Source: an uncultured virus (IMG/VR IMGVR_UViG_2061766007_001805)
Taxonomy: Duplodnaviria > Heunggongvirae > Uroviricota > Caudoviricetes
Reading direction: 5' to 3' (one strand)
Length of the DNA: 62,391 nucleotides
Virus record (IMG/VR): IMGVR_UViG_2061766007_001805
Shown: positions 447 to 61,972 of the stretch, one piece after another
How positions within the stretch are numbered: the stretch's first letter is position 1
How the letters are laid out: every line of letters begins with the position of its first letter
Made by a program: the position numbers and the translations under genes
The notes under the pieces: model-generated
Database searches by the model: none
The model's input: only the letters and a program-made list of their open reading frames with translations
Told to the model about the DNA's origin: nothing

Positions 447-3400
447 ATGGGACAGAAAATAGAACATGGATTTAACAAAACTTAGGATGTTGGCACTCCA
501 ACATCATCACTGAACATACCGGCGTCGTCTATTATCATTCCTGCTCATCCAAAGAAGCGGGTGGAATCGGAAGATGCGGTTGGCGAGCCATTATCTGGAG
601 CATCTGAGCAGACAGAAAATTGTTTTGCTGCGAAACATTAGTTTAATTCGGATTTAACAAATGATGTTGGCAGTCCAACATCATCAACTTGTTTTGCTGC
701 GAAACAACAGGCTGGCACTTCAACATCATCTTCCGGAAATCAGAGGATGTCAGCCGGCAGTCCAACAGGAAATGCGGAGTCTGTGGTTGGTGAGCCTGGG
801 TTGTCAAGTTGTTTTGCTGCAGAACATTAGTTTAATTCGGATTTAACAAATGATGTTGGTGAGCCAACATCATCAAATCGTTCTGCAGCAAAACATCAAG
901 CTGACAGTATCCCAACATCGTCAACAAATTCTGTTGCATCACCCGTGTCTTGCGGAAGTCCAACGTCATTTCGCGGAACATCTGCATCATTTCGCGGAAC
1001 TATACAGTCGGAATCTTCAGCAGAGCAGTCATATTCCGGCACTCCAACATCATCTTACGGAAGTTCTATGGAATCTCGCGGAACCGGAACTGCATTTGGC
1101 GGAGCTGCAACATCATTTGGCGGAAGTTCATCATCATCGGCAGAGTCTGAAGCATCATTAGCAGACTCTGAAGCATCTGCACAGGTTAGTGATGACATTA
1201 CTGCGGATGATGTTGATAGTCCGGTGTCAGACAGTTCCGTATTAAAGCGTAAGCGTGGTCGTGTAAAGGGCAGTGTTTCGTCGAATAAGAGCAGTGGTGC
1301 ATCAAAGAAGATTGGAAAGTACGTATATAGTAAGGATGAAGCGGATGATGAGAAAAACAGTGTGTATGTCGATACAGAGAATTACTTTGACGCAGATCGT
1401 CTTGATGACAATCAGCCGATGAAGCAGGATCGCAAGTTATACAATGAGCCTATTGACATTCCGGATTGTTCTGAAGAGCGTTGGAAGTCTGTATGGAATG
1501 TCTCAGATGAGTACAAGTTGTACATTTCGAATCACGGAAGGGTCCGTATTATACCGGAAATCAAGACTAACAAGCACGGACGTCGTTTTCTCAACATACA
1601 TGGTGTTATGTATCCGATAGATGTGCTTGTAGCGTCTCTGTTCACTACGAATCCTACGAAGTCTGAGTTGGTTATTCACACGGACAGCAGTGTGGGCAAT
1701 GATCGTGCTGACAATCTGTGTTGGGTTCCGAACAAGACTGTTGATTATCCGGTCATCACTATGTGTAATATGACTACGAACACTTATCAGCACAAGTTGT
1801 ATCCGCGTCAGACTGTGGCGTTGATGAAGGATATGATGCACCGTATGATTCTGGACAAGATTCTGGTTCCTCTGATGCCTGGTTTGGCTCGTTGTCAGCG
1901 TCAGGTGATATATGACGGTATTTCTGAAGAGATGAACGATGAGGTTCTTGAGTACATAAGGGAGAAGTATCCGTATATGATGCCTGATGACATAGAGTGG
2001 TTGGGTGACAAGCCGGACAGGTTCAGGAGAAAGTGGAATCATGTGGTTAAGGGTAACAATGAGTACTTGTTGTCTGATGAGGAGTATGCAAGGGCGAAGG
2101 AGAACAAGGTTCAGCAGGTCAAGGACAGGGTGACTGCGTGGAACGAGTACCAGATTATGAGCAATTTGTATGACGGCGGTATAGACGGCGTGAAGTTGGG
2201 TGTGGATGTCGGTCCTTCCGGTGTGTATATGGATGACAGGCATGCGAGGGAGTATGTGGATGATTTGAGGAAGAGCGGTGAGAGCCGTTTGTCTTCGTTG
2301 CAGTACACGGATTTCAACAGGAGAATGAGAGAGCATAACGGTGCATAGCCTGCCAAGAGGTGGAATAACACGGATTTGGATAAAGGTTGTTACGGTGATA
2401 GTGTGAATCGTTCTGCTGCAGAACATCAGGCTGGTTCATCTCAGATGAGCAGTGAGTCTGGTAGCGGTTCGTCTCAGAAGAGCGGTGATTCCGGTCAGAA
2501 GCAGATGACAGCCGGTGACTGGTTCGGCAGTGCGTACGGTGCCGGCGGAATGAGCGGTGCGGTTGAGACTGTGGTGAAGAAGAAGGTGAGTGGTGTTCCT
2601 GATGTAGATGAGAATAATACGGATTTAACAAATGACAGTTATGGTATGTCACAAGCAAATCGTTCTGCAGCAAAACAATTGGCTGATTACTATTATGAAG
2701 ATGAGGATGAAGAAGATGATGATTCTTCTGAAGACAGTCCTGTGAATATCCACATTAATAGAGAAGATAATGAAGATGACAGTCTTGCCGGTCTGTATAG
2801 GGGCGGTAATACGAAGAAAGTGATAAAGATGAAAGAAGATGCTGTGAAGAGACAGCAATAGAGAGAGCAGGAGAATGTGAATTACAAGCGTTCTTCAGGG
2901 CGTGTTATGTTTGACGAATTCAAAGAGTACTTGGGTGGTAAACCTATGACAATGGAAGAGTACAAGAAGAAGCTGGAAGAGTATGAAGAGTTTAGAGAGC
3001 AGGGGTTCATGTATGCTAATTTTGACGAGAGTGTGTTTGAAGGCGGAGTGACTATGTTGGATCACGAGCCGTTGCTGACTCCGAATTAGAGACATGTGAG
3101 GTGGATGCGTGAGAACGGCAAGAGCATTAACGGCACTGTGGTGAAGAGAGACGACACCGGCATAAGATATTTCATTGATGAGAACGGTAAGTGGAGAGTG
3201 ATTATGGAGATTCCTGCGCCTGAGTTGCTGACAATCCGTGGAAAGTGGAATTTTGGCGGGGGAAGAAGGAGTCCGGTTCTGTGCACGTTCCCTAACGGCA
3301 AGGAGATGGTGTTCTGGAGTATAATATGTGCTGCTAAGTACTTGAATTTGGATATTGCGAATATAGTGAATTGTTGTCTTGGTAAGTCATCGATGACTGG

Positions 3401-3767
3401 TGGTATGAAGTTCAGGTATGTGGATGTCAAGGATGAGACGAGAGTCAATGATTTTTATGAAGCAAGATTGGAAGAAGACATAAGGGCATCTGAAGATGAT
3501 GACACTGACGATGAAGATTGCATATATGTTCTGAAACCTAAAATTGATGAGAATGGAAATACTGTGGATAGAAAGAAGGGACGTCCGAAGAAGAGTGAGT
3601 ACAGAAAGTTGTACAAGCCTAAGCAGACTGCCGGTGGTGTTCTGAATGTCATTGACAGAGCATTAGGTGACGTGTTTAGCACTGAAAAGAAGAAAAAGAT
3701 TAAACTGGATGACTATACTCCGACTGAATAGTAGATATAGGATATGCTGGACAGCAGTTTGGGGTGA
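447..3767 (+). CDS. ~1106 aa protein (code 15): Ser-rich repetitive N-terminus, NUMOD4 + degenerate HNH-like domain, acidic linker, NUMOD1-like HTH and AT-hook-like motifs
   Basis: ORFs 945-2348, 2376-2861, 2877-3089 and 3096-3731 share one frame and are separated only by TAG. The frame is open from ATG 447 to TGA 3765-3767. Motifs: ERWKSV...YISNHGRVR (NUMOD4), VLVASLFTTNP...IHTD...NDRADNLCWV (HNH_3-like), FWSIICAAKYL...IVNCCLGK...GGMKFRY (NUMOD1), KKGRPKK. The start codon is uncertain. Confidence 0.7.
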
Positions 3768-3870
3768 TATTCAAATATCCTGAGGAATATTTGAATATTG
3801 GTCGATATTTGAATATCTTGGGGGATATTTGAATATGGCAGGATATTTGAATATCAGATTGGGATATTTC
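3765..3870. repeat. Cluster of imperfect palindromes GATATTTGAATATC (similar clusters at ~13785-13890 and ~22825-22920)
   Basis: About 5 closely spaced copies in each of three non-coding regions. Confidence 0.7.
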
Positions 3871-4057: not shown

Positions 4058-4828
4058 TTAGTCCGGAAAACATTGATAAAGCTTTAACTGTAACTGTGTG
4101 TCATTATTCAGTTCATTGAATATCATAACTTTTGTTTTTTCAGGAAAGAAAAGAGAAATTATACTAACTACTATATTGTCCGGTACTATTGCATTTTTGT
4201 CTATCTTATATGAAGTGTATCTGTATGGATTATCTATATCCACATCTGAATGTTCTTCTGTTAATATATTGTTGATGTTATTAATCATTATATCGGTTAT
4301 ATAACTATTCTCATCTTTCCATAGATGTCTCATGATATTGCCTACAAATCTACATGCTGTTATATATGAATGTAGTTTGGGTAAATTAAAGAACAGCACC
4401 ATGTCGACTCTGCCGAATTCTCCACACGGAGATTGGATAAACTATTCTAATGAATTAGACCACCGTGTGATGAGTTTGTATTCATAGAAATCAATGAAAT
4501 TACATTCATTGTATTTGTCTTTAAGTAGCCACCATGCTGATTTTTCTACTACTGTTGGTTGTGAATACTCTATTCCGTACACATCAAACATATAAAGAAT
4601 GTTCTTGAATGTGTGTGGAATTTTAACAGTCCATATTTTACTCTATGTTAAACTATTATTACTGTCTACCTCAAAAATTATACAGTGTGTGTATCTGGAT
4701 GCCATTGCATCATAGTATTCAGCTGGTGTATCATAATATATGTCATCAGTGTTGAAATCACCAACTGAATTTCTCACATCCTCATCTGTCAGATCCAAGT
4801 CTTTGAAGTAGTCTTCTTTTAGTAGCAT
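4058..4828 (-). CDS. MILNE-family paralog, 256 aa (code 15)
   Basis: MLLKEDYF leader; frame open apart from 2 TAG; core YGIEYS..P / FFNLP / FFPEK / CFPD. Confidence 0.85.
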
Positions 4829-11624: not shown

Positions 11625-12449
11625 ATGATNNNNNNNNNNNNNNNNNNNNNNNNNNNNNNNNNNNNNNNNNNNNNNNNNNNNNNNNNCTTGGAGATAACAG
11701 ATGATGATATTATAGTAGATAATCCGCTTGAGCAACCATATGATATAAATGCCGTTGATAAACATCTCACATCTTATTATGAACGCTGTCTATTATTAGC
11801 ATTGATATATGAAAAAGATATATATGCTTTAGATTCACATCCGCATATTATCAATTTGCTCAATAAAGTAAAACATTTCCTTGATGTTTACAACATAGAA
11901 TATGAATATGTATTCCGAGACAAATCAAAGGGAATTGGAAATCTGTACTTATATGATGTCGGCGACTTCAGTGTGATTTCATCATACTATCCAGAATCAT
12001 CGTTAAACTACAAAAGCAACAGATACTACAATGGTGTGACTATTGTCATATATATGAGGAAGATACCAAAGTTCACATATAAGGAATCATATCACTTCAT
12101 TCATAGATTATATAATACATTATGGAGATAGTATATGAATTATGATTCCATGAGAATCACAAAATATAAGAACTTATACACTTGGAATGAAATATGTGAT
12201 TTCATGAGAATCACAAATAAGCCGATTTCACTATATGGGGATATTCTGAATGATTCGTGGAAAGATACGTCAATAACATTAAGAGACCTTACAAATCGAC
12301 GAATAATATATAACTTGCCTTATAGGGATTATTTCAAAAAAGCATTACTGTGTTTCCATAACACAGACGAAGACATAATGATAATTGATGACATGTGTAG
12401 TAAACTCAAAAATGGTATTGACCCGTTCAAAAGCAGTAATGTGCATTGA
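11625..12449 (+). CDS. MILNE-family paralog, subfamily C (PY..FFKKA..DPF), spans an N gap
   Basis: In-frame fragments across a TAG; 5' part hidden by Ns. Confidence 0.75.
11630..11686. other. Assembly gap (N run)
   Basis: Run of n characters. Confidence 0.99.
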
Positions 12450-13292: not shown

Positions 13293-14006
13293 CAAGGTGC
13301 TGTTCTTTTTGTTGGATAATATGCAGTTTTACTGAAGAACAATGACAGATGATACCAGCACTCCAATATCATTCTTTTCAGATATTAATCAAATAGAAAA
13401 ACAGATACTAATCAGATACTACGGATACTGCTGGACTTCCAATATCAATCATCTGAACATTTCCCTGAACATTACCCTATTCATTACCCTGAACATTACC
13501 CTAAAGTATTTCCGAGATAAACTTCATTTTTCATACCTGTTTCTCATTTTCAAGATCTTTACGTCTTTATACACTTTTGAACATCCGGCTTCAACTAAAC
13601 AGATACTGCTGATGATAGTGGCAGTCCAACATCATCTCTTGTGATGAAGATATTAAATTGTTCTGTAGCAAAACAATAAGTTAGTTTGGACTGTCAAACA
13701 TCATTCTGCCAAGGTCTTGGGTAATATTCGGGTCGTATGCGGGTAATATTCGGGTCAGATTTGTTTTTTTATGGGTTTTAATAGAATATTTGAATATTAT
13801 GGACGATATTTGAATATTGTCGGATATTTAAATATCTTGGGAAATATTTGAATATTGCCAGATATATGAATATCGGATTTAGATATTTCCGGAGATGACA
13901 TTTCATTATAATTATATGAAAAAGACTGAAGATGAACAGTAGTTGGGCAATAGTATTGGTAGTCCAACAGTCCAACTTCTGCTTACAGCACAAGCAGTTT
14001 GTTGTT

Positions 14007-15919: not shown

Positions 15920-16208
15920 ATGGTTTTGTTATTTACTCTTGTGATTTCCGAAACAATGATGTCTGAAGCACCATAGTTTTTTCCTGACACTATGGAGCTG
16001 CTATAAAAACGGCAGTTTATTGCGGATATTGTCAAGAACATAGAAAAATATGAAAGATTTTAAAAAAATTTGGACTATCAAACATCATATCTTGAGTTGA
16101 GATTATCAAGTTGTTCTGTAATGAAACAAGTGGTTTTGTTTGGACTGTCAGACATCATCTGAATCCGGTTGCTGTCTGATGTGCTGTCTCTTTTTTTAGA
16201 CTAATATT

Positions 16209-16682
16209 TTGTTAAAGTTTCCTAATAATTCAACAGAAATTTTGTAGTTTGAAAAATTTCATATACCTTTGCACTCAGAGAAATGTTAAGTATTCGTATG
16301 TATTCTTTTTTTCCAATAGCACCCCTGCGTGAGCAACGGTGCTATTTTTTTATATTGGACTGTCAGACATCATCTGTTAAAGTTTTCAAATAATTCAACA
16401 GAATTTTTGTAGTTTGAAAAATTTTATATAACTTTGCACTCAGATAAAATACATCGTATTACTCATATGAATTGTTTGGTAGCACTCTTGCGTGAGCAAC
16501 GGTGCTATTTTTATTGGACCTGATATCATCTGTTAAAGTTTCCTAATAATTCAATAGAAATTTTGTAGTTTGTAAAATTTCATATACCTTTGTACTCAGA
16601 GACAGTTAAGTATTCATATGTTATGTTTATAATTTTTTGCTTGCAAATAGCACTCTTGCGTGAGCAACGGTGCTATTTTTTT
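16209..16682 (+). ncRNA. Three tandem small-RNA-like cassettes: Bacteroidetes promoter, ~40-55 nt variable segment, conserved hairpin TAGCAC..TGCGTGAGCAACGGTGCTA-Tn
   Basis: TAnnTTTG motifs at 16264, 16429 and 16585; hairpins at ~16317, 16480 and 16648; no convincing ORF. Confidence 0.55.
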
Positions 16683-17098
16683 ATATTGAACTGCCGGACA
16701 TCATCTGTTATCACTCATATCAGCAATAAGCAGTTTTAAGCAGTTATTTCTGTACTGAACTAACAACTATACTGTTTTCAGATAAAAACTCGACAGAGAG
16801 TGATTCTGTGCAGAAATACGGACTATCAACAGTTTTCCTGTAATGCTATGTAGTGTGTGCATATGCGGATGCATATATACGTATATACGTGTGTTATTAT
16901 TATATGGAATTTCAACACAAGTATCAAAATTAAGAAATTTCAAAAAAAAAAATTCATTCAGTAAATTTCTGGAATATAATGATTTACGGAAAGAAAAATA
17001 AAAAATTTGAAAAAAATTTGAGAAAATTTAAAACTAAATCAAAAACACTGAGTATAATAAATAGATAGGATATTAAGATTATTAGGTTTAAATTAGTC
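16531..17098. repeat. ~570-bp non-coding block duplicated at 61814-62391
   Basis: Long shared tracts, e.g. GCTATGTAGTGTGTGCATATGCGGATGCATATA and GAGTATAATAAATAGATAGGATATTAAGATTATTAGGTTTAAATTAGTC. Confidence 0.9.
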
Positions 17099-23883: not shown

Positions 23884-24269
23884 CTGTATATGGATAAATC
23901 GGTTTCATTATTTATTCTTAATTGACTGGTAAATGGCTTTTACTACGCTTCAGGTTTAAAAACGGCAGTTTATCACGGATATTCTGTAGAATCATATAAG
24001 AGCTTTGATAGTTGCTGTCCCGGTTCCAACATCATCTCTTGAGTTTCATTTGATTAAGTTGTTTTGCTGCAGAACAATTAGTTAGTTTAGAAATTCAACA
24101 TATTAAAGAAGGTAACGATATACGTGTTGACACATTTTAATTCATATATATTTGATTGACAACTGATTGTGTTGTATTTTGTATTTAATTATTCATATAT
24201 TTGATTTTCATATAAATTGTTTGTTGATTTCAGAATTTTTTTGTAACTTTGCCTGCAAATAAAATTTAT

Positions 24270-25385
24270 ATGATACAGGCTTACAGATATAAGATATTAC
24301 CTGATGCTCAACAGAAAGTTGTTTTATCTAACTTTTTCGGTTGTGCAAGATTCATATATAACTGGGGTTTGAATATAAAGACTAAAGAATACGAGACAAG
24401 CAAGAAAAGTGTCTCATATAATCAACTTGCTAAAGAACTCACTCAACTCAAGAAGAAAGAACAATATTCATGGTTGAATGATGTAACTGTAGAATCTCTA
24501 CAGCAGTCTTTACGGAATCTTGAAACTGCTTTTTCCAAATTCTTTAAGAAAGAAGCAGAATATCCTCAGAAGAAAAAGAAGAGAAAATGCAAAGACTCTG
24601 TGAAATTCATTAGGAATATCCATTTTGATTTCAATAAATGGATGGTTAAACTACCGAAGATTGGTTGGGTGAGTCTTTGCAAGAACAGGATGTTTGATAC
24701 AAACTCATGTAAAACCGGAACTTGTACTGTCAGCAGAGATGCTTGCGGTGAATATTGGTGTTCTATCTTAGTGGATGACAAGCATATTGCTCCGATGAAA
24801 GCCAAATTGGAGAAAGATAATGCAGTCGGCATCGATTTGGGCATCAAAGACTATGCTATACTCTCTGACGGTATCAAGTTCCATAATCCGAAATATCTTG
24901 AGAGAACAAGTCGGAAACTCACATGGACACAGAGGTCTTTTTCAAGAAAGACTAAAGGTTCAAAGAACAGAGAGAAACAGAAGACTAAACTCCTGAAGTA
25001 TTACAGACTTGTCACTAACCAGAGAATTGACTATCTTCATAAGGTTTCCACGGAAATTGTCAGAAATTACAATACAATATGTATTGAAGATCTGAATGTG
25101 GACGGTATGATGAAGAATCATAAACTGGCAAGAAGCATACAGTCTGCAAGTTGGAGTGAGTTCAGAAGGATGTTAGAGTATAAGTCTGAGTGGTATGGTA
25201 AAAATCTGCTTGTCATCGGCAGGTTTGAACCAAGCAGCAAGACTTGTAATAAATGCGGATACATCAAGAAAGACTTGACATTGAAAGACAGAGAATGGAT
25301 ATGTCCTGTATGCGGAGAACATCATGACAGAGATGTTAATGCTGCAAGAAATATCTTGGATATGTCTTTTAAAAATGTGAAATAA
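24270..25385 (+). CDS. tnpB: TnpB RNA-guided endonuclease (IS200/IS605 OrfB family), 371 aa
   Basis: AYRYKI.P...FGCARFIYNWGL HTH; RuvC GIDLG, IEDL and DRDVNAARNI; SSKTC..C / CPVCG zinc finger; TAACTTTG promoter motif at 24244. Confidence 0.95.
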   Translation: MIQAYRYKILPDAQQKVVLSNFFGCARFIYNWGLNIKTKEYETSKKSVSYNQLAKELTQLKKKEQYSWLNDVTVESLQQSLRNLETAFSKFFKKEAEYPQKKKKRKCKDSVKFIRNIHFDFNKWMVKLPKIGWVSLCKNRMFDTNSCKTGTCTVSRDACGEYWCSILVDDKHIAPMKAKLEKDNAVGIDLGIKDYAILSDGIKFHNPKYLERTSRKLTWTQRSFSRKTKGSKNREKQKTKLLKYYRLVTNQRIDYLHKVSTEIVRNYNTICIEDLNVDGMMKNHKLARSIQSASWSEFRRMLEYKSEWYGKNLLVIGRFEPSSKTCNKCGYIKKDLTLKDREWICPVCGEHHDRDVNAARNILDMSFKNVK

Positions 25386-25491
25386 AATGCCCATAGGTAA
25401 GTGGGATAAAGACTGTGGAGGGCAAGGTCACAAGACTCCCTATGAAGCAGTAAGATGTACAAGGCTTTGTGCCAACATGTATATCGTTACC
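25386..25491 (+). ncRNA. Putative omegaRNA/reRNA scaffold region 3' of tnpB
   Basis: GC-richer hairpin-forming segment after the stop codon, conserved in the MITE at 57503-57597; position matches known TnpB reRNAs. Confidence 0.5.
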
Positions 25492-25702
25492 TTTTATTAT
25501 TCCATAGATTAGAGTCTGTTATAATATGTTCATCTGTTTTTATACCTCCTAAGACTATATAATTGCTGTATTTAGATGACATGGCATTATAGTACTCTTC
25601 TATATTGGCATAGTCATCAGTGTTGTGATTAACATCATCTGAAGATTCAATATCCTCATCGGTCAGTTTCAGATCATCAAAATAGTCTTCTTTTAATATC
25701 AT
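25487..25702 (-). pseudogene. 5' remnant of a MILNE-family gene truncated by the TnpB element
   Basis: Similar to the N-terminus of 20025-20768, then runs into the TIR. Confidence 0.85.
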
Positions 25703-41070: not shown

Positions 41071-41225
41071 TTTGTTAAAGTTTCCTAATAATTCAATAGA
41101 AATTTTGCAGTTTAGAAAATTTCATATACCTTTGCACTCAGAGAAATATCAATTACTTTTTGTGTTATATACATTTTCAAACATCAAATTAGCACTCTTG
41201 CGTGAGCAACGGTGCTATTTTTTTA
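41071..41225 (+). ncRNA. Small-RNA-like cassette (same family as 16209-16682)
   Basis: TACCTTTG at 41127; conserved hairpin 41190-41224. Confidence 0.55.
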
Positions 41226-41359
41226 TTGGACTAACAGACATCATTTGTTATGTTAAAGTTTCCTAATAATTCAACAGAAATTTTGCAGTTTATAAAATTT
41301 CATATATCTTTGCAGTAGAAATAACAAACAAGAAGTTTAATGCTAAAAAAGAACTTACT

Positions 41360-42112
41360 ATGACAACTAAAAGGAAATTCAAGACAGCATTGGAGTTCAT
41401 CGAGTTCTGTCATGAGAACTATACTGACAAGATTGAGATTTCTACTCCGTGCCCGGCAGACAAATTAGTCAAGCCACATGCAATGAAGAAACTCATCGGT
41501 GAAATCAAGAAGGTCTTCAACAAGTACGGCATAGACAACTTCGAAGTGGTAATCAGGCAAGATTCGGACAACTACGACTATGACCACCATACCATTGAAT
41601 ATCATGGTAGAACCATAACCGACTACAAGTTGTTCGACTACGGATTCTACAAGCATCTGTCATCAGAAGACCCAGAGAATATCCAGAAAGAATACCTTGA
41701 AGAAGATAATACTACAGCATGGGGTTACATAAACGTGTGCTTCAATATGCCTAAGCTCAACAAGCAGGACGGTTTCATGTTCATGTTCCGTCTGATGAAG
41801 GCAGTATATGGAAGGTCTAATGCCTACAATATCAACAGAATGGAGTTGAGTGACCTGAATGATTATTTCTGCGGAACCGGTTTCGAGCATATAAAGAAAA
41901 TGCAAATCCATGACTACTGTGCGGAAACTACACGTAAATTCTATGATGAAGCATGCCGGAAGGACTTCAACTACTTCATGGACACGCTGAAGGCAAAAGA
42001 AGAGCCTTGGCTATATCACGAGATTCACGGATGCACTTGTAAACGTGACATCAGGGGTCCTGAATACCTCAAGTACATAGGCACTGCCTCGTTTAAATAT
42101 CCGCCGTTCTGA
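41360..42112 (+). CDS. Divergent family member, 250 aa, without the acidic leader, behind a host-type promoter
   Basis: Core similarity (KKVFNKYGID, INVCFNMPKL..GFMFM..LMKAVY); TATCTTTG at 41305; no TAG; terminator ~42137-42168. Confidence 0.8.
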   Translation: MTTKRKFKTALEFIEFCHENYTDKIEISTPCPADKLVKPHAMKKLIGEIKKVFNKYGIDNFEVVIRQDSDNYDYDHHTIEYHGRTITDYKLFDYGFYKHLSSEDPENIQKEYLEEDNTTAWGYINVCFNMPKLNKQDGFMFMFRLMKAVYGRSNAYNINRMELSDLNDYFCGTGFEHIKKMQIHDYCAETTRKFYDEACRKDFNYFMDTLKAKEEPWLYHEIHGCTCKRDIRGPEYLKYIGTASFKYPPF

Positions 42113-49162: not shown

Positions 49163-49386
49163 ACAGTCTCAATCACGGTATGGCAAGACTATGTGTCAGA
49201 ACAACCAGCATTAAGTCGGTTACTGTTAGGTATCATCAAGTTGTTTTGCAGCAAAACTATTGGACTGCCAGACATCATCTGCATAATATAAAAATAGAGC
49301 ACTATCCTCACGGACCGTGCTCTCTAATAGTTAAGATAGAAATATAAACATCTTTATAAATTAAACTGCTGTTTTCTCATTTGGTT

Positions 49387-50118
49387 TTAAAATAATAATA
49401 TGCTTTTCGATAACTTCTTGTACAGTTTTTTATCATTATCAACTTCGTACTTTAATATCTCTTTGTCTTTTTCCGGAAAGAACATATGGAGTGTGTCGAA
49501 TATTTTCATTTTTATAGTTCTTCTGTCTGATGTTGCTTCATGTATAGTAAGACGGTTTATTCGAACATCCGGTTGTATGGATTTCTTGCTAATGTTCCGT
49601 ATATAGAACTGGATAAAGTAATTGTTATAACCGTTGTTGGACCAAATGCATTTTGTAATATTCCTGATGAAATTGCAGGCTGCGGTATATGAATGTGCTT
49701 TCGGAAGATTGAAATATATAAAAATGAACATGTACTCATAATTTTTCAGTTCTTCCTGAGTGATCATTTTGAATCCGTGATAGTCAAGGAAATAAGATTT
49801 TCTGTATTTTTCCAAAATGTTATCAACTGCGTAGTGATAATAATCATCCTCATCCTGGAATACCGGCTCAGAATGCTCGATACCGTACATGTCGAACATA
49901 TACCGGAGTTTCTTGAAGACATTCGGGACTTTAACACTAAGTGTGTCCAGTTCAGTCAGTTCGCATACGGATATTTCCAAACAATGAGTGTATTTGGATT
50001 TCATATCTATGTACCATTCTTCTGGACTGTGATACTCATCACCGGCAATGCCGTCTGAAGTTTCGATGTCTTCATCAGTCAGTTTCAAATCATCAAAGTA
50101 GTCTTCGTTTAATCTCAT
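49387..50118 (-). CDS. MILNE-family paralog, 243 aa
   Basis: Intact ORF. Confidence 0.9.
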   Translation of the reverse strand: MRLNEDYFDDLKLTDEDIETSDGIAGDEYHSPEEWYIDMKSKYTHCLEISVCELTELDTLSVKVPNVFKKLRYMFDMYGIEHSEPVFQDEDDYYHYAVDNILEKYRKSYFLDYHGFKMITQEELKNYEYMFIFIYFNLPKAHSYTAACNFIRNITKCIWSNNGYNNYFIQFYIRNISKKSIQPDVRINRLTIHEATSDRRTIKMKIFDTLHMFFPEKDKEILKYEVDNDKKLYKKLSKSILLF

Positions 50119-50234
50119 CTGTATATGGATAAATCAGTTTCATTATTTATTCTCTGGTAAGATGATGTTCGGTACTTCAAGCATCTCTTGAAAGTGATTT
50201 GATAATATTGTTCTGTAATGAAACTATTGGCTTG

Positions 50235-50452
50235 TCAGTTAAATAAACTTAAATAATTGTGTGAATTATTGTATTGTGGTTTATTATTCATACCTTTGTA
50301 TCAGCAAAAGCAACGAACCTCAGTCTATACACATCGGCTGATTAAGTCTAAGATACTGGAACTGATGCAGTTAAGTGTGGAATAAAGAAACTGGTTGGTG
50401 AAAGTTGCTGAATTGAATGTACTGTTATTCAATTATATAGTGATATATTGGA
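50235..50452 (+). promoter_or_regulatory. CRISPR leader with Bacteroidetes promoter (TACCTTTG at 50291); homologous leaders at ~52778-52998, 54681-54893 and 56303-56520
   Basis: Four alignable copies, each directly 5' of an array. Confidence 0.8.
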
Positions 50453-51966
50453 GTCTATACAGTGTCATTATTTCTACTTTATGTAGATTCTTCGAGTACT
50501 TCGAACAACAAACGGAGTCTATACAGTGTCATTATTTCTACTTTATGTAGATATGATTGTATTTTGTTTAAGTTGTTTCAAGTCTATACAGTGTCATTAT
50601 TTCTACTTAAATGCCTACTTCCGTAGGTTGTAGATTCTGCAAGAAGCCTCTTTACACGATTCGTCTATACAGTGTCATTATTTCTACTTTATGTAGATCC
50701 GCAAACAACACATCTGTACAGACCGAGTATATACAGTGTCATTATTTCTACTTCATGTAGATCAATAAGATCTTCCATAGAGACTGTGGAAGTATATACA
50801 GTGTCATTATTTCTACTTTATGTAGATGAAAACCAAACTTAAAAAATAGAGTATAAAGTATATACAGTGTCATTATTTCTACTTTATGTAGATGAATATC
50901 TCTATGAGAGCCGGTCTATACAGTATCATTATTTCTACTTCATGTAGATCTGTGATATTCGCCTTGTATGGTGAATGTAGTTTATACAGTATAATTATTT
51001 CTACTCAAATGCCTACTTCAGTAGGTTGTAGATGTGGCATTGGTTGCCGTTTTCTGTATGTGTCTATACAGTATCATTATTTCTACTTCATGTAGATATG
51101 AGCAATGACATCACTGTACCAATTAAGTCTATACAGTGTCATTATTTCTACTTCATGTAGATGCAAGTGATATGGTTATCTTGATTTGTGAGTCTATACA
51201 GTGTTATTATTTCTACTTAAATGCCTACTTCCGTAGGTTGTAGATGCAATGTAAAGATTGTATCAGACTCTAACGTCTATACAGTATCATTATTTCTACT
51301 TCATGTAGATATATTGACTTCTCGCAAAACAAATTATGTCTATACAGTGTCATTATTTCTACTTAATGCTCACTTCCGTGGGTGTGTAGATCAGTACGGT
51401 CATGACTTGACAGAAGAAGGTATCCTACAATATCATTATTTCTACTTCATGTAGATTATAATATTATATAGCGTCTATACAGTGTCATTATTTCTACTTA
51501 ATGTAGATAAAAAATGCTAGTATAATTTTCAGAAGAGTCTATACAATATCATTATTTCTACTTAATGCCTATTTCCGTAGGTTGTAGATGTCGTCATTAT
51601 ATCACTCACTCTGGTCTTCAGATCTATATAATATCATTATTTCTACTTCATGTAGATCATTGTCCTTTGATTCCAGCAAGATGACCGAATTCTTTAAGAA
51701 TATATACAACAGTATAATTATTTCTACTTAATGCCTATTTCCGTAGGTATGTAGATGTGGGCACTTATCCTGAGAAAGTAGCGGTGTCTATACAGTGCCA
51801 TTATTTCTACTTCATGTAGATTTCTGCTTTCTTTCCGTTGAATATCCTTTGTATATACAGTATCATTCATTTCTACTTAAATGCCTACTTCTGTAGGTAT
51901 GTAGATATGTAATATTCGCCGCCTTTGTGTGAGAACTCAAGACAATATCATTCGTTTCCACTTAAT
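50453..51966 (+). CRISPR. CRISPR array 1, Cas12a-type repeat GTCTATACAGTGTCATTATTTCTACTTTATGTAGAT; 22 repeats / 21 spacers; 7 long-loop repeat variants
   Basis: 36-nt repeats with mostly 27-30 nt unique spacers; 3' ATTTCTAC-loop-GTAGAT matches the type V-A crRNA handle. Confidence 0.93.
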
Positions 51967-52591
51967 GCTGGCACTACCATAAGTCACGTACTAATGCTTC
52001 CTTCCGTAGATAAGGATACTTAAGGAAATCGGTTACATCTGCTATATAGAACCCCCAGTTCGTAAGGTTATAATGTTTTTTTATCAATTCGAGATTAGAA
52101 ATATTCAAGTCGGTGTTCCTGTTAATCTTAGCTATCTGTTGGGCGATGTTGCTGATGAATCTACAAGCAAAACTATATGAATGGGCTGTCGGGAGATTGA
52201 GAAATATCACCATTCTCAGATTGTTACTGATTTCATTCAAATCCCTATACTTCGTTATCAACTTATAACCATACAGGTCAAATAAATTACAAGATTTGTA
52301 TCTTTCTTTAATACATATATACGAATGTGTCTGCAGAGTAGGCTATGAGTATTCTATTCCGTATACATTGAATATGTATTGAAGTCTCTTGACGATATGT
52401 GATATTCTATCTACCGAGTGCTTGTCTTTTATTTTAACATCAAAACCCAAACAATGACTGTACTTTGACTGCATGTCTATGTACCATTCTTCCGGACTGT
52501 TATACTCATTACCGACAATGTCGTCATCATGAGTTATAATGTCGTCATCGGTCAGTTTCAAATCATCAAAGTAGTCTTCGTTCAATCTCAT
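51962..52591 (-). CDS. MILNE-family paralog, 209 aa (code 15); stop codon lies inside the last CRISPR repeat
   Basis: TAGs at 52343 and 51974; TAA at 51962-51964. Confidence 0.8.
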
Positions 52592-52998
52592 CTGTATATG
52601 GATAAAGTATTTTCATTATTTATTCTTCAGTAGGATGATGCCCGGTAATTTACCATAACTGCGTTAGCTGCTATAAAAACAGCAGTTTATTATGGAAGAC
52701 AAAAAAACGGTCCGGCACTTCAACTACATCTCTTGATAGTGATTTGATGATATTGTTCTATAACAAAACGATTGAATTGTCAGTTAAATAAACTTAAATA
52801 ATTGTGCAATGTTATTGTATTGTGGTTTATTATTCATACCTTTGTAGCATCAAAAGCAATGAACCTCAGTCTCTACATAATTGCTGAATTCAGATAAGAT
52901 AATGAAACTGAATGAGTTAATTAAAAATGTGGAAAATCAGCAGGTAAAAGTTGCTGAAGATGATGTGCTGTTATTCAATTATATAGTGATATATTGGA

Positions 52999-53767
52999 GT
53001 CTATACAGTGTCATTCATTTCTACTAATGTAGATCGGGATTGTCGCCCCATACACGTGATGTAGTCTATACAGTGTCATTCATTTCTACTAATGTAGATA
53101 TTGATGAAATAATAATACAGATTCATGTCTATACAGTGTCATTCATTTCTACTAATGTAGATTGAGAATTCTTAATGAGTTTGCCCTCAAGTCTATACAG
53201 TGTCATTCATTTCTACTAATGTAGATGGTTTGTTAATTATGTCTATACAGTGTCATTATTTCTACTTTATGTAGATACAACGGAATAATCCTTAATGTGA
53301 ATTGTTAAGACAGTGTTATTATTTCTACTTAATACCTACTTCCGTAGGTTGTAGATACCTATTCATCTCCATGTACGTTATTTAGTCAAGACAGTATAAT
53401 TATTTCTACTAATGTAGATGAATTGAATAGTCTATTGATACGTCTATGCAGTATAATTATTTCTACTTAATGCCTACTTCCGTAGGTATGTAGATACAAC
53501 GGAATAATCCATAATGTGAATTGTTAAGACAGTGTTATTATTTCTACTTAATACTTACTTATGTATGTTGTAGATAAGCATCACCTTGAAATCGTGTCTA
53601 TACAGTATCATTATTTCTACTTCATGTAGATGCGGTTATGATAGTCAAATGATGACATTGTCTATACAGTATCATTATTTCTACTTAATGCCTACATCCG
53701 TAGGTTGTAGATTGGTACCACAAAACGCTCATGACACATGTATATACAGTATCATTATTTCCACTTA
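52999..53767 (+). CRISPR. CRISPR array 2, 12 repeats / 11 spacers
   Basis: Repeat GTCTATACAGTGTCATTCATTTCTACTAATGTAGAT and variants, 4 of them long-loop. Confidence 0.92.
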
Positions 53768-54517
53768 TTGCTCAATTCCATAAGTAGTTCTCTGATTCTT
53801 TGCAAATAGACATCCGAGTACACAATCTCTATCGTGCTCATTCAACACTTGCTTGTAGAAACTGTTATAGTCATTGAATGATTTAGCATCACTGCCGTAC
53901 ACATTTATCTCTTCTTCATATGTACTGTAATAATAACCGCCGTCTATGGAAAAGAGGTTTACAAGGAAATCATCACGTTTGAAGATAGTCTTTGTTAGAT
54001 AGTAAAGAAATTTCATTCCCTGCTGTATTGTATTGAAATCAGGCATATTGAAATGCATATAAAGTACATACCAGCGTGATTCATATTCCCCATTAGTTCT
54101 CTTGATTTGAGTATCTTTACATGCAAGGTGTATGTATCCGTAGTCATATATGTTGTAATTCGGTATGGAATGACCATCTATTTCAACCGTGTTGTCATAA
54201 TCTTCTTCATACGTGTCTATCAAGAATAGTTCGGAGTGTTCTATTCCGTATGTGTCGAACAGATTGTATAGCATAGTCTATATCTTCTTTACAGTGACCG
54301 GATTTATATCATGGCTTAACGCTTCACGATTTGAAATTTTGAAATCAATACACAATCTGTCAGTGTAATGTTTCTCACAGTACAGAATATATTCATATCC
54401 GGACTGGAAGTTTTTATGTGATTTAATAAACATATCTTCACCAACAGTGCTGTCTGAAGACGTAATGTCGTCATCAGTCAATTTCAAATCATTAAAGTAG
54501 TCTTCTTTTAATATCAT
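53765..54517 (-). CDS. MILNE-family paralog, 250 aa (code 15); stop codon inside the last repeat
   Basis: One TAG at 54278. Confidence 0.85.
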
Positions 54518-54893
54518 CTGTATATAGATAAAGTGGTTTCATTATTTATTCTCTCTGTATGATGTCCGGTAATTTTCCGTAACTACGCTTCAGGTTAAAA
54601 AACAGCAGTTTATTGTGGAAACATAAAAGAAGCCAGTCCGGTAATTTGGCTACATATATTCTGTAATGAAACAATTGGCTTGTCAGTTAAATAAACTTAA
54701 AATATTATCCAATAATATTATATTGTGATTTTATATTTGTACCTTTGTAACAGCAATAGCAACAAACATCAGTCTATATACATCGGCTGATTAAGCCTAA
54801 GATACTGGGACTGACACAGTTAAGTGTAGAATAATGGAACTGGTGAATAAAAGTTGCTGAATCGAATGTGCTGTTATTCAGTTACTTAGCAGT

Positions 54894-55230
54894 ATTCTGA
54901 CAGTATCATTATTTCTACTTAAATGCCTACTTCCGTAGGTATGTAGATTAAATCTCTGTCTTTTTGCAGAATCTTCTGTCAAGACAGTATCATAATTTCT
55001 ACTTAAATGCTTACATTCGTAGGTCGTAGATACTTACTCGTCGCCATGCACGTCATTTAGTCAAGACAGTATAATTATTTCTACTTAATGTAGATCTTTG
55101 GGCGAACTCATCAAGAAAGCCTTTGTCAAGACCGTATCATTATTTCTACTTAATGTAGATAACAACGTTTAATAAAAACTTCAGTCAAGACAGTATCATT
55201 ATTTCTACTTAATGCCTACTTCCGTAGGTC
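54894..55230 (+). CRISPR. CRISPR mini-array 3, 5 repeats / 4 spacers
   Basis: GTCAAGACAGTATCATTATTTCTACTTAATGTAGAT variants, 3 of them long-loop. Confidence 0.88.
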
Positions 55231-55274
55231 GGAAAACAGTTCTTCAGTTTCATATGATGTTGTCCATGAGTTCA

Positions 55275-55997
55275 TCAATTATCTGATGTGAATTGATCGG
55301 AGATGAACATATTAAGTCTTCTTAGTATGGTTTCATCCGGTGCGATTGAAGTATAGTTCATATATTCTTTTTGGTTTATATGAAAACCGTACTGCGACTC
55401 TGGTTGAAAAATGTTATTAACAACCATCTTATTCGGATCCTGTATATAAAGTGTGTACATATTGAAAATTTTTCTATATGATTCGTTGTTCCATAAACAT
55501 TTCATAATGGCATTGATGAACTTGCATGCTTCTGAATACTTATGTACTTTGGGCAAGTCTAAGAACATCATAACACACATCTCCCATTGTGTGATGCAGT
55601 TGCGTTTGTATTCTTCCATACTATTGTATGGCGTAACGAACTTGTAACCGCGGAAGTCGATAAAGTTACAATGGGCATAATCTTCATCCCTTCTCAAATA
55701 ATAATGCCGTAGTACTGGTTCAGAGTAATCTATTCCGTATACATCGAATATATAGTGAAGCTTCTTGAGAATAGACGGTATCACATTATCCCATATGTAA
55801 TATTGTTTTTCCGATAAGATTTTGTTGCCGTCTTTCTCTAACCTGATAAGCAGACAGTGGCTGTACTTGGATTTCATATCCCTGTACCATTTTTCCGGAT
55901 TCCTGTATTCGACAGCAACAGGCAGGTTGTCTGATGAAGACTCTATGTCATCGTCAGTGATTTTATTGTCATCAAAGAAATCTTCGTTCAATCTCAT
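55275..55997 (-). CDS. MILNE-family paralog, 240 aa
   Basis: Intact ORF; the family C-terminal remnant (KLKNCFP) continues past TGA into the last repeat. Confidence 0.85.
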   Translation of the reverse strand: MRLNEDFFDDNKITDDDIESSSDNLPVAVEYRNPEKWYRDMKSKYSHCLLIRLEKDGNKILSEKQYYIWDNVIPSILKKLHYIFDVYGIDYSEPVLRHYYLRRDEDYAHCNFIDFRGYKFVTPYNSMEEYKRNCITQWEMCVMMFLDLPKVHKYSEACKFINAIMKCLWNNESYRKIFNMYTLYIQDPNKMVVNNIFQPESQYGFHINQKEYMNYTSIAPDETILRRLNMFISDQFTSDN

Positions 55998-56072
55998 CTG
56001 TATATGGATAAAGTAGTTTCATTATTTATTCTTCAGTAAGATGATGTCAGGTACTTCAACTGCATCTCCCTA

Positions 56073-56182
56073 TACCATATTTCCGGATTAGTGCATTCGA
56101 CAGCAGTAGTCTGGTTGTCTGATGAAGACTCAATGCTATCGTCAGTGATTTTATTATCAAATAGGTATTCGTTCAATAACAT
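56073..56182 (-). pseudogene. Degraded 5' fragment of a family gene (copy of the start of 55275-55997)
   Basis: MLLNEYLFDNKITDD-like start with the conserved upstream motif, then breaks off. Confidence 0.7.
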
Positions 56183-56520
56183 CTGTATATGAATAAAATA
56201 TTTTCATTATTTATTTTTCGGTAATATGATATCAGGTACTTCAACCGTATCTCTTGATAGTGAATCGGTGATATTGTTCTGTAATAAAACAATTGGCTTT
56301 AAGAGTTAAATAAACTTAAATACTTGTGTGATGTTATTGCATTGTGGTTTTATATTTGTACTTTTGTATCAGCAAAAGCATCAAGCCTTAGCATCTACAC
56401 AATTGCTTGAGTATGTTTAATATATTAAGACTGAAAGAGTTAATTGGAAATGTGGAAAACTGGTGAGTAAAAGTTGCTGAATAGAGTGTACTGTTATTCA
56501 GTTACTTAGCAGTATTCTGA

Positions 56521-56848
56521 GTCAATATAGTATAATTATTTCTACTTTATGTAAATCGAGAATCCGTTCCAACCACTACGGCGAGTCAAAATAGTATAAT
56601 TATTTCTACTTAATACCTACCTCCATAAGTGTAGGTCGTAGATAGGTCCTCAATGCACTTGTGGTCAGTAATGTCTATACAGTGTTATTATTTCTACTTC
56701 ATGTAGATTATCGATGATAATCATCTTCTATAAGTCTATACAGTATAATTATTTCTACTTAATGCCTACATCCGTAGGTTAGGTATGTAGATGAAAGGTG
56801 ATTGGTGAAGCATATGTACTGTCTATACAATATCATTATTCTTACTTA
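56521..56848 (+). CRISPR. CRISPR mini-array 4, 5 repeats / 4 spacers
   Basis: Same handle; 2 long-loop variants. Confidence 0.85.
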
Positions 56849-57451
56849 AAAGTCTTCTTCAGTAAGATCCACTCTCATTGAATATACTCCGACTGTTTGA
56901 ATTTCCTGAGTTGCATATGACTCAAACTGGTAAACTGGTTCAGTTTCGGAATCAGCACCCATAATGTATGTCACAAGACCTTCAGTGAAATAACTGTCAT
57001 CCGACTTGCTATCACGTAATGCGGATAGTGCGAGAGATGCACTGTGTGGCGGGAAATCTCCAGGGAATACACATCCGAAGAACGGACTATCCGTAACATC
57101 AACTGTTATATCACTGAGACTTGAGTCAGAGAACCAGACGAACAGTGTAGGTGCATTCATATATCCTTCACCGTCATGCTGAAGGATTGTGTACACACCG
57201 TGACACTCTTTTCCGTGTTCTTTGTCTATCAGGACAGATACAGTGCCGTCTTCTTCAGAGTCCTGCTTTACGTACCAGCCTTGAAACTCATACAGCAATA
57301 CAAGTTGTCCCGGATAATTGTCATTTGCCCAGCGACGTACCATGACATTCATTTTGTAAAGCAGGTCATTGAAATCAGCAGTGACCGGTGTGTCATAGTG
57401 CAGTTCAGGTTCATTGTCTGTGCCTAATACAAGATGATTGTTAGCTTCCAT
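56846..57451 (-). CDS. Hypothetical acidic protein, 201 aa (MEANNH...), unrelated to the family; stop codon inside the last repeat of array 4
   Basis: ATG at 57451 after an A-rich leader; the extra 48 aa in the ORF track come from the MITE and UTR. Confidence 0.75.
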   Translation of the reverse strand: MEANNHLVLGTDNEPELHYDTPVTADFNDLLYKMNVMVRRWANDNYPGQLVLLYEFQGWYVKQDSEEDGTVSVLIDKEHGKECHGVYTILQHDGEGYMNAPTLFVWFSDSSLSDITVDVTDSPFFGCVFPGDFPPHSASLALSALRDSKSDDSYFTEGLVTYIMGADSETEPVYQFESYATQEIQTVGVYSMRVDLTEEDF

Positions 57452-57502
57452 TGTGTATAGTATTTTATTTTTGATGTGAATTGATGTAATTGTAAAAAGT
57501 AT

Positions 57503-57715
57503 GGTAATGATATACATGTTGGCACAAAGCCTTGTATATCTTACTGCTTCATATGGTTGCCCTCCACAGTCTTTATCCCACTTACCTATGGGCATTTGAT
57601 ATATGTTTATTTATGAGCGAAGTTACAAAAAAATTCTGAAACCAACAAACATTTTCATAATAAATTATTAATCTAATTATTATGACTAAATTGTGCCAAC
57701 ATATATATTGTTACC
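57503..57715 (-). mobile_element. 213-bp MITE of the TIR-TnpB element (promoter plus putative omegaRNA region, tnpB deleted)
   Basis: TIRs GGTAATGATATACATGTTGGCACA / TGTGCCAACATATATATTGTTACC; 8-bp duplication AAAAGTAT at 57495-57502 and 57716-57723; interior matches 24218-24250 and 25385-25491. Confidence 0.88.
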
Positions 57716-57793
57716 AAAAGTATAACAACATGCTGTTGCTCTTGTCATAGTTCTGCTCTGAAATTTATATCTTGAAGCATTTGTTCTGGCATA

Positions 57794-61812: not shown

Positions 61813-61972
61813 TTGTTAAAGTTTCCTAATAATTCAACAAAAATTTTGTGGTTTGGAAAAAATCATATACCTTTGCACTCAGTATCATTTTTGTATAATA
61901 ATTACATTATTTTAGGTTTTTTGTTCTTCATGATAGAATAGCACTCTTGCGTGAGCAACGGTGCTATTTTTT
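61813..61972 (+). ncRNA. Small-RNA-like cassette (same family as 16209-16682)
   Basis: TACCTTTG at 61868; hairpin 61939-61972. Confidence 0.55.

Follow-up and report, generated by a model that had tools for sequence, protein, structure and literature searches.

CRISPR arrays that reside on a mobile element with no cas gene beside them raise the question of which nuclease reads them, and against whom they are directed. This question is posed by the 62,391-nucleotide DNA of an uncultured virus assigned to the Caudoviricetes (IMG/VR record IMGVR_UViG_2061766007_001805; the whole of this stretch is called the window here), in which four arrays with repeats of the Cas12a type (type V-A) alternate with members of a large gene family. 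The answer that we favor, with a probability of roughly 0.6, is that the arrays work as type V-A arrays on an element of the cattle gut that is phage-like and TAG-recoded, that they depend on a Cas12a provided in trans, and that they target rival mobile elements.

A scan for the Cas12a handle motif, combined with a parse of the array units, yields 42 repeats, all on the + strand and distributed over four arrays of 21, 12, 5 and 4 repeats, with degenerate tails besides. Array 1 (A1; 50453-51906, +) comprises 21 repeats and 20 spacers; when the 36-nt form of the repeat is denoted by s and a hairpin-extended form by L, its order is ssLsssssLssLsLssLsLsL. One or more degenerate terminal repeats (about 51936-52012, +) follow and overlap the 3' end of a family gene on the opposite strand (51962-52591, -). 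Array 2 (A2; 52999-53789, +) has 12 repeats in the order sssssLsLLsLL, of which the first four are identical variants (CATTTCTAC, with the loop TAAT) and the last is degenerate. The five repeats of array 3 (A3; 54894-55229, +) are ordered LLssL, the last one being truncated, and the four of array 4 (A4; 56521-56792, or up to 56874 with its tail, +) are ordered sLsL and followed by a degenerate terminal repeat (56821-56874, +) with the stem TCTTAC/GTAAGA; degenerate repeats close all four arrays. An earlier sequence-only reading of this DNA had counted 22, 12, 5 and 5 repeats, numbers that agree with the parsed handles (21 plus the tail, 12, 5, and 4 plus the degenerate copy).

The commonest unit is 36 nt long and can be written as GTCTATACAGTGTCATTATTTCTAC-TTyAT-GTAGAT. 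That all repeats have this length, as the sequence-only reading assumed, holds for 25 of the 42 units and fails for the other 17, which measure 47-60 nt and had been overlooked. The handle itself is near-invariant: TTTCTAC is present in 41 and GTAGAT in 39 of the 42 repeats, and two of the three exceptions to the latter are terminal repeats. At the 18 positions located 5' of the handle, the commonest base is found in just 21-42 of the 42 repeats. Cas12a cuts upstream of the handle and retains handle and spacer, and the contrast between a conserved handle and a variable upstream part that would be discarded was counted in favor of working arrays. No Cas12a handle was detected outside the four arrays when the whole window was scanned, and a repeat pattern of this kind in four arrays cannot be the product of chance.

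The assignment of the repeats to the Cas12a type stands on their TTTCTAC-loop-GTAGAT architecture, which is that of three reference V-A loci: L010 and L011, whose arrays lie beside matches to TIGR04330 (cas_Cpf1), and L022, which possesses the same architecture. TIGR04330 was found in 2 of the 401 surveyed genomes, with scores of 829 and 735 bits. The reference arrays consist of uniform 36-nt repeats (10/10, 8/8 and 22/23) that end in AATTTCTACT-N3-GTAGAT and are spaced 61-64 nt apart. In this small sample, the base two positions before TTTCTAC is an A in all three arrays; in the window, 36 of the 42 repeats carry T at this position, 5 carry C and 1 carries A. The handle loop of the window's repeats is 4-5 nt long in 25 of them, and 15-28 nt long with an inner hairpin in the remaining 17.

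The proposal that the 62 kb contain no cas gene was upheld by Pfam searches on 10 proteins and by tblastn, neither of which found cas12a, cas1, cas2 or cas4; when all 33 open reading frames (ORFs) of the three reference V-A loci were compared with the window by tblastn, the best E value was 0.13. In this comparison, the reference Cas12a protein touched no more than the TnpB gene of the window (E 0.84). A pattern survey of 401 genomes returned mostly chance singles. Among the genomes of 185,579 species, with one genome representing each, the exact handle with its ATT prefix occurred in no array, a pattern that would skip host repeats with an A at that position; the lone match (L004) has nothing array-like beside it. 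IMG/VR returned 0 matches to the repeat; relaxing the pattern brought up 3 isolated ones, all due to chance. Metagenome contigs provided two handle matches, of which one (L005) is a chance match inside a coding sequence and the other (L006) is real.

It is on this last contig that a target of the arrays was identified. Spacer A1s12 (51246-51274, +) is identical in 27 of 29 bases to positions 3312-3340 of L006, with mismatches at spacer positions 16-17, and the protospacer is directly preceded on the spacer-sense strand by TTTG (3308-3311), a protospacer adjacent motif (PAM) of the TTTV type, in the position and orientation that Cas12a requires. This is the only full-length match (blastn-short, E 7e-7) that 42 queries, comprising the 38 internal spacers and the 4 stretches after the last repeats, produced in 190 kb of loci, with a score that 100 shuffled spacer sets never attained. 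L006 had been chosen for its single copy of the handle and not for a spacer match. For the earlier suggestion that the arrays attack competing elements, this match is direct evidence, and the 5' TTTV PAM that had been expected is present at the one protospacer found (1 of 1). Self-targets are absent from the window, and seed-plus-PAM matches within it are limited to one low-complexity 10-mer. The protospacer is located in an ORF of 263 amino acids (aa) of unassigned function that has few relatives in other metagenome contigs and is not a member of the window's gene family. Through the two mismatches, Ala is replaced by Val in a codon where the relatives possess Ala or Thr, so that the spacer seems to derive from a different allele of this gene.

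The targeted contig is 7.2 kb long, has a G+C (GC) content of 32.5% (34% for the window), and encodes an RtcB ligase, an IS1595 transposase and one ORF that is open only when TAG is read as glutamine (TAG=Q); it is probably TAG-recoded as well. No cas gene is present in its 7.2 kb. It does carry a cas-less mini-array of its own (4374-4475), in which a promoter-like stretch is followed by a repeat whose handle is the same, by a spacer of 27 nt, by a degenerate repeat and, last, by a terminator. The degenerate repeat still forms a hairpin with a compensated stem, TCTC/GAGA (region 4340-4580), and the spacer of the mini-array has no match in the window. Furthermore, the 33-nt terminal inverted repeat that flanks the TnpB gene of the window (gene at 24249-25385, repeats within 24102-25500) also flanks the IS1595-type element of L006 (126-166 and 2692-2725), which suggests that L006 and the element studied here draw on one pool of mobile elements.

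The spacers themselves are mostly of a regular size: 30 of the 38 internal ones measure 27-30 nt, 7 measure 14-25 nt (six spacers fall within 14-23 nt), and one is 45 nt long. Their GC content (36.5%) does not differ from the null derived from the window (34.2 +/- 1.5%). Terminators after the repeat units are not above chance level (1 found, 2.2 expected). To compare populations, three DNA runs from other studies and one RNA run were inspected for contigs that match positions 49300-57700. From the trailer half of array 1, two stretches recur with 0 differences in two of these studies, 51340-51502 (163 nt; X4 and X5) and 51553-51746 (194 nt; X4), and at least 8 of the 12 repeat-to-repeat joints listed contain other letters of spacer length. 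Differing joints together with identical trailer pieces indicate, therefore, that spacers differ between populations while old ones persist, as is the case in active arrays.

The arrays bear marks of recombination as well. With 26 of 27 bases in agreement, spacers A2s5 and A2s8 are duplicates, A2s6 and A3s2 agree in 22 of 28 bases and are diverged copies, and spacer A1s15 has ATTATATAG in common with the leader end, a leader-like fragment within array 1. Five of the six differences between A2s6 and A3s2 fall on every third base, for which our own estimate (p ~0.05) gives a hint only. A likeness between A2s3 and A3s3 on opposite strands (18 of 28 bases) was no better than that of shuffles and was dropped.

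Each array is preceded by a leader of about 270 nt, and the four leaders are homologous (mean column identity 69%). Every one of them possesses the TAnnTTTG box that had already been read from the sequence, as a single aligned copy located 147-155 nt before repeat 1 (4/4 aligned). In leader 1 (50182..50452, +), the box TACCTTTG (50291-50298) lies 155 nt before repeat 1, an ATTG (50268-50271) is found 19 nt upstream of this -7 box, and GTTAAATAAACTTAAA starts at 50238. The -7 box reads TACCTTTG as well in leader 2 (52727..52998, +; box at 52837-52844) and leader 3 (54630..54893, +; box at 54740-54747), and that of leader 4 (56248..56520, +), TACTTTTG at 56359-56366, deviates at an n position alone. 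The motif GTAAATAAACTTAAA, which with its preceding GT corresponds to GTTAAATAAACTTAAA, is invariant in all four leaders and has no other exact match in the window. The starts of the leaders are spaced 2546, 1903 and 1619 nt apart, from which it follows that a unit made up of family gene, leader and array underwent tandem duplication; the four modules arose from such duplications, and their spacer content has changed since then.

The composite motif TTG-N17-22-TAnnTTTG is found 18 times in the window, compared with 9.6 +/- 3.0 times in shuffled sequences, and a TAnnTTTG box lies within 120 nt upstream of just 2 of 49 family genes, which do not use it and have a different conserved 5' region in common. 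None of these 49 genes (0/49) is preceded by a Shine-Dalgarno-like motif. Promoters of the TAnnTTTG type and missing Shine-Dalgarno motifs are typical of Bacteroidota. The promoter type, the lack of Shine-Dalgarno motifs and the cattle-gut habitat point to a host from the Bacteroidota at most, and not specifically to Prevotella. Contigs of the RNA run align to array 1 with only 1-2 differences (50920-50998, 51013-51097 and 51133-51304), and none cover the flanking genes at 49300-50423, with the proviso that stretches devoid of RNA-library contigs do not count as silent. Elsewhere in the stretch, the contigs of the RNA run show 8-15 differences and so come from relatives. The data on array 1 constitute a weak hint at its transcription.

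From these observations, the following course of events can be proposed. Each array would be transcribed rightwards from its own Bacteroidota-type leader promoter, and a Cas12a encoded outside the 62 kb, most likely that of the host, would bind each handle of the transcript and cut just upstream of it. The 27-30-nt spacer would then be used to cut DNA that bears a 5'-TTTV motif, as supported by one target, and the DNA under attack would belong to rival mobile elements, as seen for spacer A1s12 alone. New spacers would be acquired at the leader end by an adaptation module that is presumably also supplied in trans; the four identical first repeats of array 2, the degenerate trailers and the differences between populations fit acquisition at this end. 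The host is the likely source of the Cas12a, and this is the simpler reading because the four arrays and the mini-array of L006 all stand without cas neighbors.

The 17 long repeats deserve separate consideration. Long and short repeats are interspersed in all four arrays. In the long ones, the 4-5-nt loop gives way to a stretch of 15-28 nt whose typical sequence is TTAA(A)TGCCTACTTCCGTAGGT(A)T, and where a short repeat folds into a 5-bp stem, a long one folds into a 5-bp base stem, an internal loop and an inner hairpin of 6-8 bp (-7 to -14 kcal/mol). The loop bases that flank the base stem are the same in both forms, and pairing holds in 96% of the inner-stem cells (98% for the inner hairpin in the covariation test), with one compensatory pair. 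The inner hairpin is conserved, though covariation gives no proof of this, and it resembles the handle itself, nested in the loop over the kept 5-bp base stem. Since neither the base stem nor the bases that flank the loop are lost in the 17 long repeats, these would be expected still to load Cas12a. The handle loop of AsCas12a has been described as located in an open pocket, free of protein contacts, and an engineered guide with a folded aptamer inserted at this loop can be active (PMC11760950); by analogy with this result, a stable natural hairpin at the same site is plausibly tolerated by Cas12a. A second paper considered in this context (PMC7968991) concerns another "loop" and was set aside. 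The exact handle strings appeared in no paper text searched, a narrow search that leaves room for long-loop Cas12a repeats having been described. Spacer A1s12 follows a long-loop repeat (51192-51245), so that the guide with the identified target would carry an extended handle.

Tentatively, then, and with distinctly less assurance than for the arrays as such, one may view the hairpin-extended repeats as natural, working guides of Cas12a that evolved on a phage, with which the element both re-arms and saturates the Cas12a of the cell. A long-loop guide might out-compete the crRNAs (CRISPR RNAs) of the host for Cas12a, it might withstand the anti-CRISPRs, made of RNA or protein, that rival phages use, or it might suit a divergent, undescribed Cas12a. 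If this view were true, TAG-recoded rumen phages, L006 included, would fight one another via one borrowed nuclease.

A number of observations weigh against working arrays that are served in trans. A target is known for one spacer out of 38, and with two mismatches; a comparison of all arrays with INPHARED returned just 6 weak matches (E >= 0.2), and five spacer patterns gave 0 matches in IMG/VR. The off-size spacers (7 of 38 with 14-25 nt, one with 45 nt) and a heterogeneity of the repeats far above that of the three uniform reference arrays are not what one would anticipate, nor is the base with which the mature handle is expected to begin, T or C and not A. The search for cas genes covered the 62-kb window alone, and the survey of 185,579 species, in which the exact, ATT-prefixed handle occurs in no array and as one lone match only, supplies no cognate Cas12a. 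Short contigs with other spacers could stem from host arrays with the same repeat, the RNA library may hold DNA and its contigs show neither ends nor strand, and covariation in the inner hairpin is not above that of shuffles.

Of the alternatives, the one that survives best, and which we still regard as unlikely, is that the element possesses its own type V-A or Cas12a-like system outside the window, in which case the crRNAs would load an effector of the element and nothing would be hijacked. The visible 62 kb are part of a probably much larger genome, and huge phages have been reported to encode class 2 effectors (PMC7162821). A private effector would also fit a handle that is found in no array among the 185,579 species representatives and whose first mature base, as well as 17 of its 42 loops, departs from the three reference arrays. 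However, no cas gene lies beside any of the arrays, with up to 50 kb visible on one side, and L006, with the same handle, is likewise devoid of a cas gene in its 7.2 kb. Moreover, nearly all of the phage CRISPR systems described in the study just cited were reported to lack adaptation genes, whereas the spacers here differ between populations.

Even less probable, in our estimation, is that the arrays serve mainly as an RNA anti-CRISPR, with some 42 handles and four promoters that flood the Cas12a of the host with guides of no use, in the manner of Racr RNAs, or redirect it in the manner of Cracr RNAs, and with spacers that are mostly filler. There is precedent for such a role: the solitary V-A repeats RacrVA1-3 inhibit Cas12a (PMC10651486), and a viral V-A crRNA-like RNA is reported to repress cas12a (10.1101/2024.10.29.618823). 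The high copy number and the four promoters would suit this task, the selection that is visible is limited to the handle, six spacers are only 14-23 nt long, and the spacers resemble the window null in GC content (36.5% and 34.2 +/- 1.5%). Against this stand the spacer length of 27-30 nt in 30 of 38 cases, the turnover of spacers between populations next to constant trailer pieces, and the PAM-flanked protospacer in a rival element, L006. In addition, seed-plus-PAM matches within the window amount to that one low-complexity 10-mer, no terminators stand behind the units (1 found, 2.2 expected), and decoy and targeting roles are in any event mutually compatible. Very improbable is the notion that the arrays are decaying relics, captured from a host CRISPR locus, which multiplied as passive passengers of the gene family and now serve no purpose, for although the heterogeneous repeats, some truncated spacers, the leader-like fragment in array 1 (A1s15) and the lack of nearby cas genes could be read in this way, the handle is near-perfect (41/42 and 39/42) while its flanks drift, the promoter box is intact in four leaders that are just 69% alike, identical pieces of the arrays occur in several studies, and the arrays appear in an RNA library.

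The element that carries these arrays, which we hold to be working ones served in trans, is present in cattle-gut metagenomes (20 runs from 11 studies). With the standard code, the window seems to encode little, its ORF coverage being 0.60 and its longest frame 535 aa; once TAG is taken as a residue, these values increase to 0.77 and 1107 aa. The 46 family genes contain 63 in-frame TAG codons, and the aligned columns are 2.4-fold enriched for Q; the stops used by the family genes are TAA (33) and TGA (16). These data support that the genes of the window need TAG=Q to be read. Stop-codon reassignment is a known trait of phages (PMC11210395), and the element is called phage-like for this reason; a virion or replication gene was not found in the window. 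Outside the family, Pfam recognized, besides TnpB, a NERD protein, a C5 DNA methylase and a large protein of the HNH/NUMOD type.

The gene family comprises about 46 paralogs of 230-300 aa (MILNEDYFDDLEITDDDI...) that occupy the greater part of the window (4058-61591) and have a mean column identity of 31%; about 35 of them possess a near-identical 5' region, AGAATAAATAATGAAACyGATTTATCCATATACAG-ATG. As proposed earlier, the arrays alternate with family genes, and these are all on the minus strand: one of 243 aa (49387..50118, -), divergent from leader 1 and with no Pfam or PHROG match, precedes array 1; one of 209 aa under TAG=Q (51962..52591, -) lies between arrays 1 and 2; one of 250 aa under TAG=Q (53765..54517, -) between arrays 2 and 3; and one of 240 aa (55275..55997, -) between arrays 3 and 4. 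The family protein has no match in Pfam or PHROG, just 5 relatives among 5.8 billion protein clusters, and no usable match in an Atlas search. Its predicted model is a confident one (pLDDT, predicted local distance difference test, of 84.5) and has no convincing fold match either, the best Foldseek E value being 0.096 and the best VIA Z score 5.7, all to common ferredoxin-like folds. INPHARED contains no match to the locus or the family protein, and IMG/VR none to the conserved 5' motif of the family genes.

Several further features of the window were recorded in passing. Three tandem units of about 165 nt (16201-16710) lie within a gene-free gap of 1.6 kb; each contains a TTG-N-TAnnTTTG promoter-like motif, and two of them also possess a terminator hairpin that is strong and has a T run. 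In appearance these units are small-RNA genes, and they have neither a Cas12a handle nor an Rfam match; in the window as a whole, no Rfam family and no tRNA was matched. More copies of the motif of these units, TTGyAGTTTr-AAAATTTCATATAyCTTTG, are present at 41105-41312 and 61846-61875, and two promoter-like copies of this set lie upstream of a divergent family member (41360-42112). Extra copies of the TnpB-type terminal repeat are found near array 4 (57487-57528 and 57691-57718), one of them inside the ORF at 56846-57595. Two short intergenic tandem arrays (3766-3869 and 13786-13874) consist of an 18-20-nt unit around the palindromic core ATATTTGAATAT. The frame of 1106 aa at 447-3767 is open only with TAG=Q (9 TAG), and its product has a long low-complexity N-terminus rich in Ser, Thr and Gly, together with matches to HNH and NUMOD-like endonucleases. 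An N run (assembly gap) at 11630-11686 falls inside a family gene.

Few phage arrays that borrow a host nuclease have a concrete target, and the pair of spacer A1s12 and its TTTG-flanked protospacer is one that can be tested. The target element itself has a mini-array of the Cas12a type, which fits a phage-versus-phage conflict waged via one nuclease in the rumen. The window also provides natural Cas12a handles with a structured loop insertion, one of which is used by the very spacer whose target is known. If the long-loop guides work, nature already uses a loop site that engineers have begun to exploit only recently, and such guides could point to an undescribed Cas12a variant or to a strategy of competition.

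How does this locus relate to systems that are already known? Al-Shayeb et al. (2020) reported that phages without cas genes but with host-like repeats may use the Cas proteins of their hosts, and described cas-less arrays of huge phages that are compact, with a median of six repeats, and that have spacers against other phages (PMC7162821); the use of host Cas proteins is echoed in a report on jumbo phages (PMC13037316), and the paper on Lak megaphages reports no repeat matches in Lak genomes. The locus in the window shares with the huge-phage arrays a phage-like carrier, the lack of nearby interference and adaptation genes, at least one spacer against another mobile element, and a Cas protein proposed to act in trans. 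It differs from those described in PMC7162821 by an array of 21 repeats, by four tandem leader-array modules, by repeats of type V-A, by the hairpin in the loop of 17 of 42 of these, and by a first handle base other than A. It thus belongs with the cas-less huge-phage arrays by its way of working, in part only, as it is the likeness to host repeats that defines those cases.

With RacrVA1-3, as presented by Camara-Wilpert et al. in 2023 (PMC10651486), the window has in common that a mobile element devoid of cas genes carries repeats of the Cas12a type, and that the binding of Cas12a to the repeat hairpin is the expected first step. Unlike these solitary and spacer-free repeats, the handles in the window all belong to arrays, with 4-21 repeats each, whose spacers are normal in length and include one with a PAM-flanked target. 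CracrVA1 (10.1101/2024.10.29.618823) is likewise a virus-borne V-A repeat with a spacer-like segment, reported to be processed by host Cas12a, and it is resembled in layout by the mini-array of L006 with its repeat, 27-nt spacer, degenerate repeat and terminator. RNAs of the Cracr kind have one degenerate repeat, then a short spacer that in part matches the promoter of a cas or toxin gene, and then a terminator; the arrays of the window, in contrast, are long, have full-length spacers and lack terminators after their units. The chromosomal V-A arrays L010, L011 and L022 resemble those of the window in their 36-nt repeats with an initial GT, in the TTTCTAC-loop-GTAGAT architecture, in a spacing of 61-66 nt, and in that transcription from the leader puts the handle before the spacer. 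Their repeats, however, are uniform, with AA before TTTCTAC and 4-nt loops, and two of the arrays adjoin cas12a, whereas the repeats in the window are heterogeneous, with TA or CA before TTTCTAC and loops of either 4-5 or 15-28 nt, and have no cas neighbor. Phage arrays that lack cas genes have thus been described before; what appears to be new is the extension of the handles by a hairpin, together with the fourfold occurrence of the module of leader and array.

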